Sequence record: OQ721909
Source of the DNA: Escherichia phage vB_VIPECOOM01
Length of the DNA: 64,000 bases
Reading direction: 5' to 3' (one strand)
The position numbers and the translations under genes were made by a program. Of this stretch, positions 3,389 to 11,468 are shown one piece after another (positions within the stretch are counted from its first letter, which is position 1; every line of letters starts with the position of its first letter). A model generated the notes under the pieces. It had not been told where the DNA came from and ran no database searches. It was given only the letters and a program-made list of their open reading frames with translations.

Positions 3389-3919
3389 TTATATCCCATT
3401 ATTTGAGAGATGTAAACTATTTTTAATTTTACAAATTCGTTCAGCTTCATCGATAGCAGCATTAATAATGCTTTTAGCTATAGGAGTACTAATACTAGTA
3501 GCTTTTACACTTAACACGATTTCTTTATCTTTACCAGGCCAACCCCATGATTTTTCACCGTGAGTGCCTTTAATTACAGCAGACACCTCAAGTGAGCGTC
3601 CATTATCATATGTTTTTACATTAACAACCCAAGGGTCACTTTTCTCAATCGGTTTCTCAACCGGTTTATCCCAGTAAATATTAAGAATGCGTGGGACATC
3701 AAATTTGGCAGGACAAATCTTAACCGTAAGACCTTCGCTTTCTAGCCAATTAATAAGAGGGCGTTCATACAGGCGACGATGTGGGCTTGGGATTCGACAA
3801 GCCTTATGTCCGTTGCTTGCGGCTTCACTAAGCTGTTCTAATACCTGCTTTTGCATTATTGATAAGATACCATCAAAAGATTTTTCGGAAATTTCATTCA
3901 GTTCGGTATAAAGAGACAT
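3389..3919 (-). CDS. Hypothetical protein (e.7 position)
   Basis: 176 aa, SD gaggaa before ATG, preceded by a PeSL-type promoter. Confidence 0.6.
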   Translation of the reverse strand: MSLYTELNEISEKSFDGILSIMQKQVLEQLSEAASNGHKACRIPSPHRRLYERPLINWLESEGLTVKICPAKFDVPRILNIYWDKPVEKPIEKSDPWVVNVKTYDNGRSLEVSAVIKGTHGEKSWGWPGKDKEIVLSVKATSISTPIAKSIINAAIDEAERICKIKNSLHLSNNGI

Positions 3920-3937: not shown

Positions 3938-3974
3938 TAGGCTCATAATATCTCAATCATGAGCCTATGTAAAC
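3938..3974 (-). promoter_or_regulatory. PeSL-type early promoter with stem-loop
   Basis: Minus strand GTTTAC (-35, plus 3969-3974) abutting upstream stop codon, 17-nt spacer, TATTAT -10; stem taggctcat/atgagccta 3938-3967. Confidence 0.55.
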
Positions 3975-4478: not shown

Positions 4479-5042
4479 TTATTTATCTAGTTTAGTTATT
4501 ATAGCTTCTGCGGCAGCTTTTAGCTTAGATGCGGTGTTAATACGATTTTTAATTTCAGTATACGCATCGCCAAGAACATCAAGGCTATCAGAATAAACAC
4601 TTACACTATTGCGTTCGCTATTTGAAATAGAACCTTTAGTTTTACGATCAAAATCGGTGTACACGTCTTGAAGATCACGGGCTGCCTTCTTTGCATCATC
4701 CAATGCGTCAAGAGCTTTATTCAAAGCATTAACGTATTTTTTAGTGTCGAACATATTCTTAGAAATTTTAACAGGTGCGCGTTCAGGAGTAGCTAATGCA
4801 GATTTAGGAACCTGAGCGCCAGATGCCAATTTCTTAGAAATTTTGAAAAACGCTTTATTGAATTTATTTTCTTGACTCATCGTAAAAGAACTATTATCGA
4901 TGTTGTACATTTCAATAGCTTTAGCTTTCCACTTAAGAAAATCGCCGCGGTCTTTTGGGTCCAAGTGGAAGAATACTTTAGTAAGATCTGCTTCAGATGG
5001 TAATTTTGCTGCTTCGGTTAAAAATTCGGCATAGGTTTTCAT
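4479..5042 (-). CDS. Internal-protein-like protein with N-terminal capsid-targeting sequence
   Basis: N-terminus MKTYAEFLTEAA matches the T4 internal protein CTS pattern (MKTYQEFIAE) plus an L-x-E prohead protease site; lysine-rich body; bracketed by terminators. Confidence 0.6.
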   Translation of the reverse strand: MKTYAEFLTEAAKLPSEADLTKVFFHLDPKDRGDFLKWKAKAIEMYNIDNSSFTMSQENKFNKAFFKISKKLASGAQVPKSALATPERAPVKISKNMFDTKKYVNALNKALDALDDAKKAARDLQDVYTDFDRKTKGSISNSERNSVSVYSDSLDVLGDAYTEIKNRINTASKLKAAAEAIITKLDK

Positions 5043-5131
5043 TTAAAATCCTTGAAATGATTTATCAGTTGGTTATTAATTATTTATTACTTTGCTATTA
5101 TCTGCAGCAGCATTCTCTATGTGATTCAAAC

Positions 5132-5160
5132 TAAAAAGCCCCGACCGAAAGGTCGGGGCT
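5132..5160 (-). terminator. Rho-independent terminator
   Basis: Stem agccccgacc/ggtcggggct with GAAA loop, followed by UUUUU on the minus strand. Confidence 0.75.
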
Positions 5161-5167
5161 AAGAATG

Positions 5168-5641
5168 TTATTTGATTTGTTTAGCAGACCAAATGCGGTC
5201 TTTAATAATTTTTTGGATGTCTTCAACATACTCTAGGTCATGAGCATGTGGGTTATCTTTGAAACTATAAGCACGAGCTAGTTTTTGGCCTTCAGTTTTG
5301 ATTACTAAAAGCTCTTTAAGGATAGCTTCATATTTAGCGATAATTCCTTTAACAATATTTTTTTCTTGTGCAACTTTAGGATCTGCTTTAGGAGCAGGTT
5401 TACCCGAAGCCTTTGCAAAAGCAGCGCCAGTAGCAACTAAACTTTTCCAGGCCATACTAACTGCATTTCCTGTAAATCCTTCTGCTTTCATGTCGCGGGC
5501 AAATTGGAATCGTGATTCGTCAGAAGCATCTTTATAGGAATATTTACCCGCTGCAATGGCTGCTTTTGCGACAGCTTGAATTTCGGTGCTAGATGCTTCA
5601 TTTAACACCGCTTCATTTAAAAATTGAGCATATGATTTCAT
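5168..5641 (-). CDS. Internal-protein-like protein with N-terminal capsid-targeting sequence
   Basis: N-terminus MKSYAQFLNEAV (CTS-like, L-N-E cleavage motif); own late promoter upstream and terminator downstream. Confidence 0.6.
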   Translation of the reverse strand: MKSYAQFLNEAVLNEASSTEIQAVAKAAIAAGKYSYKDASDESRFQFARDMKAEGFTGNAVSMAWKSLVATGAAFAKASGKPAPKADPKVAQEKNIVKGIIAKYEAILKELLVIKTEGQKLARAYSFKDNPHAHDLEYVEDIQKIIKDRIWSAKQIK

Positions 5642-5680: not shown

Positions 5681-5688
5681 TATTTATA
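5681..5688 (-). promoter_or_regulatory. T4 late promoter TATAAATA (minus strand)
   Basis: Plus tatttata at 5681-5688, about 40 nt upstream of the 5641 start. Confidence 0.6.
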
Positions 5689-5690
5689 CT

Positions 5691-5718
5691 AAAAAGCCCC
5701 AACCTTTCGGTCGGGGCT
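5691..5718 (-). terminator. Rho-independent terminator closing the tRNA/small-RNA transcription unit
   Basis: Stem agccccaacc/ggtcggggct (one G-U), loop TTTC, then UUUUU on minus strand. Confidence 0.7.
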
Positions 5719-5725
5719 AAGCCTT

Positions 5726-8772: not shown

Positions 8773-9171
8773 TCAGCCTTCATCAACAATAGTGTGAGTA
8801 TTAGCATTTACAATTTGCCACCAATCAAAGCGATTAGAATCCATCGGTTTGTTTTCATTTTCTTTGATAATGTCACGGAGTTCATCTTCAGAGAATGCTT
8901 TAGCAATTAAATCGGTATACCCACCACGGGGATAATAATTATCACCTGCAAACAAAAGGAAATTTACCTTCCCGGAAGGAACATACGCTTCCTTAGGATA
9001 CTTGTTTCCTGTGTGGTCAACCACTTCAATATAACGGTAAGGAATATCGGTTCTTTCAACCCATTGCCATGCCGCTGCAGGGGAATCGAAAGCATCTACA
9101 CCTAAACGATTATCTTCATCTTTAGACGGATTATTTTCGTAATCCGCATATACATAATATTCAACGTTCAT
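8773..9171 (-). CDS. Hypothetical protein
   Basis: 132 aa, start overlaps upstream stop (ATGA arrangement). Confidence 0.55.
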   Translation of the reverse strand: MNVEYYVYADYENNPSKDEDNRLGVDAFDSPAAAWQWVERTDIPYRYIEVVDHTGNKYPKEAYVPSGKVNFLLFAGDNYYPRGGYTDLIAKAFSEDELRDIIKENENKPMDSNRFDWWQIVNANTHTIVDEG

Positions 9172-9356
9172 TATTCACCTTTAGAAATTTTATCCATAAC
9201 GATAGCAATTAAACCAATTAAAAATGCTACTACAAGTGAAAAAACATTTTCTGCCGTAGTCAATAATCCGCATATAAATCCAACAAACATTGAAAAACTG
9301 AAAGCGGAAGCAGAAATTGCAATAGCAACATTTCGAATTAATTCACAACGTTTCAT
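9171..9356 (-). CDS. Small hydrophobic (membrane) protein; start moved to internal ATG
   Basis: Track ORF 9171-9497 would overlap the previous gene and its promoter; ATG at 9354-9356 has SD gaggagaataaaATG and follows the PeSL; 62 aa, mostly hydrophobic. Confidence 0.5.
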   Translation of the reverse strand: MKRCELIRNVAIAISASAFSFSMFVGFICGLLTTAENVFSLVVAFLIGLIAIVMDKISKGE

Positions 9357-9375
9357 TTTATTCTCCTCAGTAGTT

Positions 9376-9414
9376 GATAGGGTAATAATATCACTACCCC
9401 ATCTAAAAGTAAAC
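9376..9414 (-). promoter_or_regulatory. PeSL-type early promoter with stem-loop
   Basis: Minus GTTTAC (plus 9409-9414) directly after upstream stop, stem gatagggta/taccccatc, -10 TATTAT. Confidence 0.55.
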
Positions 9415-9648
9415 TTATTTTTTACGAAAAATTGATTTATTTTCTGCTGCCCATTTTTCAATAACTGCAGCAGGACCAGTAACAACAATTTTATCACCGT
9501 AATCTTCTGCGGCGAGTTGACCGAAATTATCTAATGCATCACGAAGAACTCCATGAGGCATTTCACCCATTTTATCTTTCTTGCCGGTGTAAATAAACTC
9601 AACTTTTACATCAGAAGATTCAGCGATAAACTCTTTGAAAGTTTTCAT
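9415..9648 (-). CDS. Internal protein I-like small protein with capsid-targeting sequence
   Basis: From second Met: MKTFKEFIAESS (CTS-like, I-A-E cleavage motif); 77 aa; position beside 57B matches T4 ipI. Confidence 0.6.
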   Translation of the reverse strand: MKTFKEFIAESSDVKVEFIYTGKKDKMGEMPHGVLRDALDNFGQLAAEDYGDKIVVTGPAAVIEKWAAENKSIFRKK

Positions 9649-9677
9649 TTTAGTTTCCATTCGATTGTTTTGTTTTG

Positions 9678-9715
9678 ATAGGGTAATAATATCACAACTA
9701 AAACCCTATGTAAAC
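9678..9715 (-). promoter_or_regulatory. PeSL-type early promoter with stem-loop
   Basis: Minus GTTTAC (plus 9710-9715), 17-nt spacer, TATTAT -10; stem atagggt/accctat. Confidence 0.55.
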
Positions 9716-9727
9716 AACTTTGTGAAA

Positions 9728-9985
9728 TTATTTTAAATCTTCTAATCGTTTCTTCATCTTAGAACCATTTTTAGCAATTTCTCCTGCATCGGAGCATAAT
9801 GCTAAAAGTGCTTTAACTTTCGTTTGGTCTCCTTTAAAAGATGAAGGATCTACTGCAGCAGCAAGTTCTTTAATACGAGAGAAAAGACGCTCAGCTTCAG
9901 CTAAAGCCATTCCAAGCTTTACTTCCATACCGTGGGAAGATTCAGTGATAGTAGTTTTTGTAGCAAACTCTTTGAAAGTTTTCAT
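9728..9985 (-). CDS. Internal-protein-like small protein with capsid-targeting sequence (paralog of 9415-9648)
   Basis: N-terminus MKTFKEFATKTTITES (CTS-like, I-T-E motif); 85 aa; SD aggaaaataaaATG. Confidence 0.6.
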   Translation of the reverse strand: MKTFKEFATKTTITESSHGMEVKLGMALAEAERLFSRIKELAAAVDPSSFKGDQTKVKALLALCSDAGEIAKNGSKMKKRLEDLK

Positions 9986-10005
9986 TTTATTTTCCTAATT
10001 AATTT

Positions 10006-10045
10006 TGATGAGGTAATAGTATCACTACCTCATCAGCATGTAAAC
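10006..10045 (-). promoter_or_regulatory. PeSL-type early promoter with stem-loop
   Basis: Minus GTTTAC (plus 10040-10045), stem tgatgaggta/tacctcatca 10006-10035, -10 TACTAT. Confidence 0.5.
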
Positions 10046-10057
10046 AACTCTGTGAAA

Positions 10058-10742
<685 letters not shown>

Positions 10743-10743
<1 letters not shown>

Positions 10744-11468
10744 TATAGTACCTTTAGTGTATTTTTAATTTTAGAAAAAAGTTCTTCAAGAGAACCATCG
10801 TTTGTAATTACTAAATCGCCATTACGAATTGGCAATCCAGCTTCTGTAATATGTGTATCATTGGATTTTTGACCAGGACGAACTACATGAATTACTGTAG
10901 CACCCATCGCCCTAGCCGCATCCATTTCATGATCTTGACGAGTATCAGGAACGATATAATAATCATAACCTGAGTTAAATTTATCAAGATAATCTAAAGC
11001 AAATAATTTTACCCAATACATGCGGTCGAAGTTATTAACAATCAAATCCGTACCTAGGGCTTGCATCAGACGACGGACTGACCATTGATCTTCAATATTA
11101 TTTATAACGTCAATAATCTTGTTACATGCTACGGAATCAACTGATTCTTGTCCTTCGTCCTCAAAAACACACACACCTTTAATTGGGCTTTTACTATTAA
11201 GATAGCAAAATGCTTGTTCCATAATCGTGATTACTTCTGATTTAGTCAGATTTAAATTAGTCTCACGATCATAGTCAATTCCTTCAAACTCTTTACGAGT
11301 TAAGCAAGGATAGTCAGTGTTTGCTGCGAATACGCCCCATGCATAAGCCAATGCATCCTTAATAGGACCAGCAAGTTGATATTTAACTGCAGAATAATTA
11401 TTCATGATAAAATCTGCAGTAGTATCTTTTCCACTACGCTTTACACCGCTTAAAAAGATTAGTTTCAT
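10743..11468 (-). CDS. 1: Deoxynucleoside monophosphate kinase
   Basis: 241 aa, P-loop GVKRSGKDT near N-terminus, size and position as T4 gp1. Confidence 0.85.

Follow-up and report, generated by a model that had tools for sequence, protein, structure and literature searches.

The internal proteins of phage T4 have a leader that targets them to the prohead core. This leader is trimmed by gp21 after an L/I-x-E motif, and the proteins are kept in the head and injected with the DNA. The ip5 and ip6 nomenclature for internal proteins reportedly originates from Repoila et al. 1994. At one of the internal protein (IP) loci of T4 the gene order is 57B-ipI-trna.4, with ipI alone in the slot, and the product of this gene, IPI/IPI* (PF11634), is an injected inhibitor of GmrSD. 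Each of the T4 proteins Ip1, Ip2 and Ip3 blocks a single, different type IV restriction enzyme of the GmrSD type (Silas 2025, PMC12373910). More than 30 IP variants exist (Arbiol 2010, PMC2839356).

The promoter-early stem-loop (PeSL) is an intergenic early promoter with an overlapping stem-loop and a Shine-Dalgarno sequence, found beside small accessory genes and having chimeric junctions that indicate recombination. The model for these elements, including mini-circles, is that of Arbiol 2010 (PMC2839356), and in the account of Repoila 1994 contained in that paper PeSL-like elements are described as having been seen at the two variable IP loci. A promoter consensus for the T4 and PST PeSLs, TTTACW-N17-TAYWAT, and the IP differences between PST and T4 have also been published (Comeau 2014, PMC4122927). 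The elements at the IP loci of the T-even phages are analogues, not homologues, of the PeSLs of phages RB49 and phi1; they have T4 early promoters and hairpins that are weaker, AT-rich and without poly-G/C tracts (Arbiol 2010, PMC2839356).

The locus described here is in a window of 64,000 nucleotides from Escherichia phage vB_VIPECOOM01 (OQ721909), which is the whole stretch of DNA that was analysed. It resembles the PeSLs in all of the features listed above, including the chimeric junctions. It differs from the PeSLs in that its repeat also reaches into the coding leader. The genes, the arrangement of the locus and the shuffling of promoters and hairpins are all already known (Repoila 1994 onwards; Arbiol 2010; Comeau 2014). 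In the literature searched, no papers naming Ip5, Ip6 or Ip7 were found.

Two internal protein genes between 57B and trna.4

A 1.5 kb block containing the locus was tested and is 100% identical to Escherichia phage vB_VIPECOOM03 (OQ721911, genus Tequatrovirus), in which a window position x is found at x + 64000. At least 80% of this block is present in 207 records. All of the genes are on the minus strand and in the direction of transcription their order is gene 1 (10743–11468), 57A (10513–10743), 57B (10058–10513), ip5 (9728–9985), ip6 (9415–9648) and trna.4 (9171–9356). The spacers are 72 nt between 57B and ip5, 79 nt between ip5 and ip6 and 58 nt between ip6 and trna.4. The 151 aa ORF of 57B is the conserved left anchor of a variable slot and is annotated either as '57B' or as 'RNA ligase' in OQ721911, T4, T2, T6 and PST. 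The conserved right anchor, trna.4, is a 61 aa predicted membrane protein (phrog_1692, 6e-35) and is annotated as trna.4 in T4, T2, T6 and PST.

The initial annotation of this region identified two adjacent small ORFs that start with MKTFKEF and carry an I-x-E motif. Both are present on the minus strand, and 9415–9985 spans exactly from the stop of ip6 to the start of ip5. The annotation was also correct in placing a single ipI next to 57B in T4, where it lies between 57B and trna.4. The window genes occupy this same site, which is one of the two variable ip loci. Very probably, the variable slot bounded by 57B and trna.4 is occupied here by ip5 and ip6, which both belong to the T-even class of internal proteins and are unrelated to each other.

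The closest arrangements are those of T6 and Yersinia phage PST, which have the gene order 57B-ip5-ip6-trna.4 and the same spacers as the window. Mature Ip5 is 100% identical and mature Ip6 is 95.5–100% identical in these phages, so that there is no material difference other than the ip6 leader of T6. The annotation of the T6 record states 'Ip5 ... replaces ipI'. T2 shares the 57B cassette, ip5 and the trna.4 anchor with the window. The order in T2 is 57B-ip5-ip7-trna.4, where the second gene, ip7, encodes a 102 aa protein with unrelated cargo behind a chimeric spacer.

The ip5 gene encodes an internal head protein precursor of 85 aa, in which the leader MKTFKEFATKTTITE is followed by SSHG. 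The cleavage motif ITE is at residues 13–15, with cleavage predicted after E15 to leave a mature protein of 70 aa and pI 9.2. Two more L/I-x-E sites, at residues 28–30 and 38–40, are within a predicted helix. Ip5 matches phrog_3499, 'internal head protein', from end to end (1–85 of 85, 1.2e-49). The mature part is found at 90% identity or more in 267 phage records by tblastn, and homologues are named ip5 in T2, PP01, ime09, T6, PST and others, with UniProt entry Q38378 being the Ip5 of RB70. A paralogue of about 54% identity with the leader MKTYSEF is present in 226 records at the other ip locus, beside e and denV. The presence of this paralogue at the second locus indicates that cargo moves between the loci as well.

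The ip6 gene encodes a precursor of 77 aa, in which the leader MKTFKEFIAE is followed by SSDV. It has a single I-x-E site, IAE at residues 8–10, with cleavage predicted after E10 to leave a mature protein of 67 aa and pI 6.5. A mechanical list of ORFs uses an in-frame ATG at 9660 (METKMKTFKEF, 81 aa); the start at 9648 is the one annotated by the depositors, and homologues retain the MKT N-terminus. Ip6 matches phrog_8111, 'internal virion protein', from end to end (1–77 of 77, 3.3e-51). By tblastn with the mature part it is encoded in 229 records, and homologues are named ipVI or ip6 in Yersinia phage PST, GiZh, VR7 and T6.

The AlphaFold model of Ip5 is a two-helix hairpin (pLDDT 71.1), with a disordered leader that has pLDDT below 50 at residues 1–12. 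That of Ip6 is a ferredoxin-like alpha/beta fold in the order beta-alpha-beta-beta-alpha-beta (pLDDT 80.8), with pLDDT below 50 at residues 1–9. A low confidence leader followed by a folded body is as expected of a removable propeptide. In Pfam scans neither protein gave anything above the cut-off, and comparison of their sequences with solved structures gave only chance-level matches (E of at least 0.76). Word-indexed searches for homologues recovered relatives from T-even phages only, in 5 clusters for Ip5 and 11 for Ip6. Against viral models, Foldseek found nothing below E 0.5 for the Ip5 helical hairpin, and for Ip6 it gave hardly anything apart from the Ip6 of VR7. Ip6 was also searched exhaustively with HMMER against 1.84 billion representatives, which gave five matches, four of which are phage Ip6-like proteins. 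The fifth, a 491 aa NHL-repeat protein, aligned via five repeated stretches and was treated as spurious. As judged from their sequences, the Ip5 and Ip6 families are very narrow.

Ip5 and Ip6 are like T4 IPI/IPI* in their slot, their type of leader (MKTFKEF...ITE, followed in T4 IPI by A), the cassette proximal to 57B and their similar size. The description of the two genes as ipI-like is not borne out. Neither Ip5 nor Ip6 matches IPI_T4 (PF11634) even at E values up to 1, compared with 7.3e-54 for T4 IPI itself, and by BLASTP they resemble IPI in the leader only. The mature sequence of IPI is unrelated to those of Ip5 and Ip6. Nor are the two ORFs fragments of one disrupted or frame-shifted ipI, the case that the initial annotation gave as its own refutation. 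Small size and adjacency are all that would suggest such an origin, and it is given virtually no probability. Neither ORF matches IPI_T4, the two are separated by a 79 nt spacer with its own promoter and each is found intact in hundreds of genomes. In a comparison with a divergent Gaprivervirus-like relative, dN/dS is 0.06 for ip5 and 0.15 for ip6, in both cases well below 1. Since each ORF matches its own family profile from end to end and each is under purifying selection, the frame-shift scenario is excluded.

The leader and ribosome-binding region of ip5 and ip6 form a direct repeat of 31 nt that is 97% identical (9628–9658 at ip6 and 9965–9995 at ip5) and extends over seven codons of the leader, counted from the start. 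The MKTFKEF start is common to Ip5, Ip6 and T4 IPI. BLASTP similarity between Ip5 and Ip6 stops at residue 12/17, with none beyond, in agreement with the divergence after the leader that had been described.

The ip6 leader is MKTFKEFIAESS in the window and in PST, and MKTYQEFIAETA (MKTYQEFIAET) in T6. At the DNA level ip6 of T6 begins ATGAAAACTTACCAAGAATTT, encoding MKTYQEF, whereas in the window and PST it begins with the ip5 version, ATGAAAACTTTCAAAGAGTTT, encoding MKTFKEF. There are five amino acid differences between the window and T6 Ip6 proteins, and four of these are within the first 12 residues. The common MKTFKEF of Ip5 and Ip6 is therefore most likely the outcome of a lineage-specific, short-patch exchange between neighbouring cassettes, as read from the leader sequences, and not a relic of duplication. 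In this lineage the ip5 leader appears to have replaced that of ip6 through short-patch conversion. If so, the targeting signal would itself have evolved in concert.

This bears on the proposal that the pair arose by duplication with divergence, that is, by tandem duplication of an ipI-like gene and subsequent divergence of the cargo. Such an origin would account for the adjacency of the genes, the identity of the leaders over seven codons and the likeness of the upstream cassettes. It is nevertheless very improbable. The mature parts have no detectable similarity to each other, they belong to different PHROG families (phrog_3499 and phrog_8111), their predicted folds are a helical hairpin and an alpha/beta structure, and neither is a match to IPI_T4. 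Each gene is also found without the other, as in the ip5-ip7 pair of T2 and in a locus with ip6 alone (L039), and ip7 is likewise found alone (L038). The T6 leader removes the shared MKTFKEF from the evidence for duplication. Judged by their profile matches and predicted folds, ip5 and ip6 are cargo genes of no relation to each other that have been joined to the same leader and regulatory module, rather than diverged paralogues.

Promoter and hairpin cassettes

The spacers upstream of ip5 and ip6 contain a 71 nt repeat that is 82% identical (9673–9743 and 10003–10073). The sequence AATAATTTCACARAGTTGTTTACAT, running from the stop codon to the -35 hexamer, is present at two sites only in the 64 kb, both of them here, and was not matched in any of 100 shuffles. 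The promoters before the two genes are TTTACA-N17-TAYTAT, of the sigma-70/T4-early type.

The first cassette, which is the 57B-ip5 spacer (9986–10057, minus strand), has a T4-early-type promoter and a hairpin followed by AGGAAA and the ATG. Its promoter has GTTTAC at 10045–10040 and a -10 of TACTAT ending at 10016, scoring 9/12 with TG in a promoter scan, and its hairpin at 10006–10035 overlaps the -10 (-17.4 kcal/mol, z -4.89). The spacer is nearly identical to the 57B-ip spacers of T4, T2 and T6. The second cassette, the ip5-ip6 spacer (9649–9727, minus strand), has the promoter TTTACA-N17-TATTAT from 9714 to 9686, a hairpin at 9678–9709 with outer pairs extending to 9672–9716 (-14.9 kcal/mol, z -3.88) and a weak Shine-Dalgarno sequence, GGAAA. 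A third cassette of the same kind, which was absent from the initial annotation, precedes trna.4 in the ip6-trna.4 spacer (9357–9414, minus strand). In this cassette the promoter is TTTACT-N17-TATTAT from 9413 to 9385, the hairpin is at 9376–9403 (-16.1 kcal/mol, z -3.50) and the Shine-Dalgarno sequence is GAGGAG.

None of 200 shuffles folded as well as the native sequence for any of the three hairpins. All three promoters fit the PeSL consensus TTTACW-N17-TAYWAT, each with a TG before the -10. There are seven sites with this consensus in the window, of which four have a strong hairpin, and three of those four are at the ip locus. The stem arms differ in each copy and yet still pair, being GATGAGGTA with TACCTCATC, TAGGGT with ACCCTA, and GATGGGGTA with TACCCTATC. 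The view that each gene is preceded by a nearly identical promoter and stem-loop therefore holds for the promoter half; the stems differ in sequence and the hairpins are only approximately alike.

A simple scan found no intrinsic terminators at the cassettes, the hairpins having no T-run after them. In the record of the related phage ASO78A, all three of these hairpins are annotated by the depositors as rho-independent terminators on the basis of prediction programs, and the first of them also as a T4 early promoter. In the arrangement proposed here, ip5, ip6 and trna.4 would each have their own T4-early-type promoter. Transcription from the promoter within a cassette would start in the 3' arm of that cassette's hairpin. 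With the -10 located inside the hairpin, the full structure can be formed only in RNA that reads through from upstream. In such a transcript the hairpin may attenuate or stabilise the message, which would fit a role as an attenuator or 3' end, any terminator activity being putative.

The late-promoter motif TATAAATA is not present directly upstream of ip5 or ip6. The nearest upstream copy is at 11099–11106 inside gene 1, approximately 1.1 kb upstream of the start of ip5. The early promoters alone do not account for the supply of Ip proteins at the time of head assembly.

Two unannotated ORFs with the same kind of leader are found elsewhere in the window, between the e.8-like genes and the tRNA cluster. 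The ORF at 4479–5042 starts with MKTYAEFLTE, followed by A, and that at 5168–5641 with MKSYAQFLNE, also followed by A. The second of these is behind a TATAAATA late-promoter motif, upstream of which is a GC-rich hairpin with a T-run after it. Both ORFs belong to phrog_2280, 'unknown function', and among the 40 of 163 matching phage records that were listed, the ORF at 4479–5042 is 'hypothetical' wherever it is annotated. The two ORFs may encode additional internal proteins, which would make this a third locus.

Exchange of cassettes and variation of the slot

The repeated unit is considered to be approximately 70 to 100 nt in length, and would consist of the stop codon, an AT-rich tract, the -35, the hairpin with the -10, the Shine-Dalgarno sequence and the first seven codons of the leader. 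Such a unit could provide the homology for recombination, through which whole ip genes would be inserted, deleted and swapped together with their regulation. Eleven spacers from the window, T4, T2 and T6 were aligned. The 5' half of the T4 ipI-trna.4 spacer matches the ip5-ip6 spacer of the window at 36 of 41 positions and the ip6-trna.4 spacer at 16 of 41. Its 3' half has the opposite affinity, matching the ip6-trna.4 spacer at 42 of 43 positions and the ip5-ip6 spacer at 24 of 52. From these sequences, the T4 spacer is what would be expected as the product of gene excision between two flanking cassettes.

The T2 ip5-ip7 spacer is likewise composite, with a 5' half of the ip5-ip6 type (41 of 41) and a 3' half of the 57B-ip type (43 of 46, compared with T4). 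The two arms of its hairpin no longer match. In both the T4 and the T2 chimeric spacers the crossover is in the conserved GTGATAYTATTAC core, which is made up of the -10 box and the loop.

The gene content of the slot was surveyed in 41 loci, these being 36 IMG/VR loci fetched with 57B together with the window, T4, T2, T6 and PST. Both anchors are present in 37 of the loci. Across these 37 the slot contains from 0 to 5 ORFs, a few of which are leaderless or probably spurious. The ORFs form at least 24 single-linkage sequence clusters and are found in 24 different arrangements. Besides the loci with ip6 alone or ip7 alone, there is an empty slot (L012) and a case of ip5-ip6 within an array of four genes. 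Cassette shuffling at a hyperplastic locus, as was originally proposed for this region, is borne out by the chimeric T4 and T2 spacers and by the variable gene content in other phages; at the ip locus such shuffling is well supported by these sequence comparisons.

Proposed function of Ip5 and Ip6

By analogy with T4 IPI, IPII and IPIII, Ip5 and Ip6 would be made as precursors with an N-terminal capsid-targeting sequence, MKTFKEF...I-x-E, that directs them into the core of the assembling prohead. Cleavage by the prohead protease gp21 behind the Glu of L/I-x-E would then remove the leader. The mature proteins, Ip5* of 70 aa, which is basic, and Ip6* of 67 aa, which is near neutral, would then stay in the head and be injected with the DNA. 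Packaging, cleavage and injection are in each case proposed from the T4 proteins. On entry of the DNA, Ip5* and Ip6* may neutralise a host defence, as T4 Ip1, Ip2 and Ip3 do the GmrSD enzymes. This anti-defence role is the best guess that the analogy allows, with the chances for and against it about equal.

Protection against type IV restriction was suggested as a means of checking the two genes. Part of this has already been run, as Ip4-10 were assayed against GmrSD variants with no reproducible interaction or inhibition (Silas 2025, PMC12373910). Ip5, Ip6 or both might instead be injected to inhibit a host defence other than the GmrSD classes that have been assayed, such as another modification-dependent nuclease or a different defence acting in the first minute. 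This more specific proposal is put forward tentatively, as somewhat less than probable.

The absence of a GmrSD target for ip4-10 also fits a different role, in which Ip5 and Ip6 act inside the head in DNA condensation, charge balance or assistance with ejection, and not as inhibitors of defence. The basic mature Ip5 (pI 9.2) and the generic predicted folds of both proteins are in keeping with this. Such a role is unlikely. Ip6 is near neutral (pI 6.5), and all three of the T4 Ips with a known function are defence inhibitors. The gene content of the slot is also highly variable among close relatives, and in L012 the slot is empty, which fits accessory genes of an arms race better than structural genes.

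The clean chimeric junctions of this locus are a compact worked example of gene exchange mediated by cassettes. The remaining interest is functional, in what Ip5 and Ip6 target. Should they be inhibitors of defences beyond the GmrSD classes, the slot would amount to a ready collection of anti-defence proteins, packaged in advance, whose targets have yet to be discovered. The targets of Ip5 and Ip6, once found, would extend the map of counter-defence that is delivered as protein at injection.

Leader and start codon of ip6

The ip6 leader varies by lineage. It is MKTFKEFIAESS in the window (9625–9660) and in Yersinia phage PST, and MKTYQEFIAETA in T6 (L005, 1460–1494) and in the IMG/VR locus L039. 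The window version is identical in DNA to the leader of ip5. This lineage variation, together with the DNA identity to ip5, suggests that short-patch conversion between the neighbouring cassettes lies behind the ip6 leader of the window. An in-frame ATG is present four codons upstream of the ip6 start (METK-MKTFKEF; 9649–9660, minus strand), because of which the start has been placed too early by mechanical ORF callers and in some database entries (P0002, MEIKMKTYQEF). There is no Shine-Dalgarno sequence before this upstream ATG, and GGAAA precedes the MKT start.

Neighbours and occupancy of the ip slot

The late-promoter motif TATAAATA is found inside gene 1, upstream of 57A (11099–11106, minus strand), and could give rise to late transcripts that read through into 57A, 57B and the ip genes. 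In RefSeq-style records the 57B gene (10058–10513, minus strand) is labelled 'RNA ligase'. Two H-x-T/S-x motifs, KIHSTICY and TPHITLSY, are present in its sequence; such motifs are typical of 2H phosphoesterase/LigT-like proteins, a putative family assignment for 57B.

The slot can be empty, and ip genes, as a class, are thus dispensable at the 57B-trna.4 locus: in one contig of a related phage (L012, IMGVR_UViG_3300030021_000002; 3450–3530), 57B is separated from the trna.4 homologue by only 74 nt. A paralogue of Ip5, with about 52–54% identity and the leader MKTYSEFLSESILNE, is found at the other ip locus, between e and denV, in 226 phage records, including phage HMD-9 (L006, 1938–2219) and VR25 (L007, 1956–2237). 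One cargo family therefore occurs in both of the variable ip loci, in different phages.

A further cassette and leader-bearing ORFs outside the ip slot

A fourth cassette of the type seen in the ip slot, a promoter (TTTACA N17 TATTAT) with a hairpin (-18.1 kcal/mol, z -5.3), is located at 3945–3973 on the minus strand. It is upstream of a 176-aa ORF (3389–3919), the product of which is a hypothetical protein of phrog_6869.

Two minus-strand ORFs with capsid-targeting-like leaders lie in the interval that separates the e.x genes from the tRNA cluster. These encode 187 aa (4479–5042; MKTYAEFLTE-AA, with putative cleavage before AA) and 157 aa (5168–5641; MKSYAQFLNE-AV, with putative cleavage before AV), and both belong to phrog_2280, a family of 'unknown function'. 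The 4479–5042 ORF has matches in 163 phage records; in the 40 of these that were listed, it is always a 'hypothetical protein' where annotated. When the two products and the IPIII-like protein of this phage are compared by BLASTP, the likeness is in the leader only. Unlike ip5 and ip6, with their early-promoter cassettes, the 5168–5641 ORF is preceded by the T4 late-promoter motif TATAAATA (5681–5688, minus strand). Upstream of this motif is a GC-rich hairpin with a T-run after it (agccccgaccgaaaggttggggcttttt; about 5690–5725, minus strand), a near-identical copy of the hairpin being present after the ORF (about 5130–5165, minus strand). At what would be a third locus, the 4479–5042 and 5168–5641 ORFs may encode internal proteins that have gone unrecognised.
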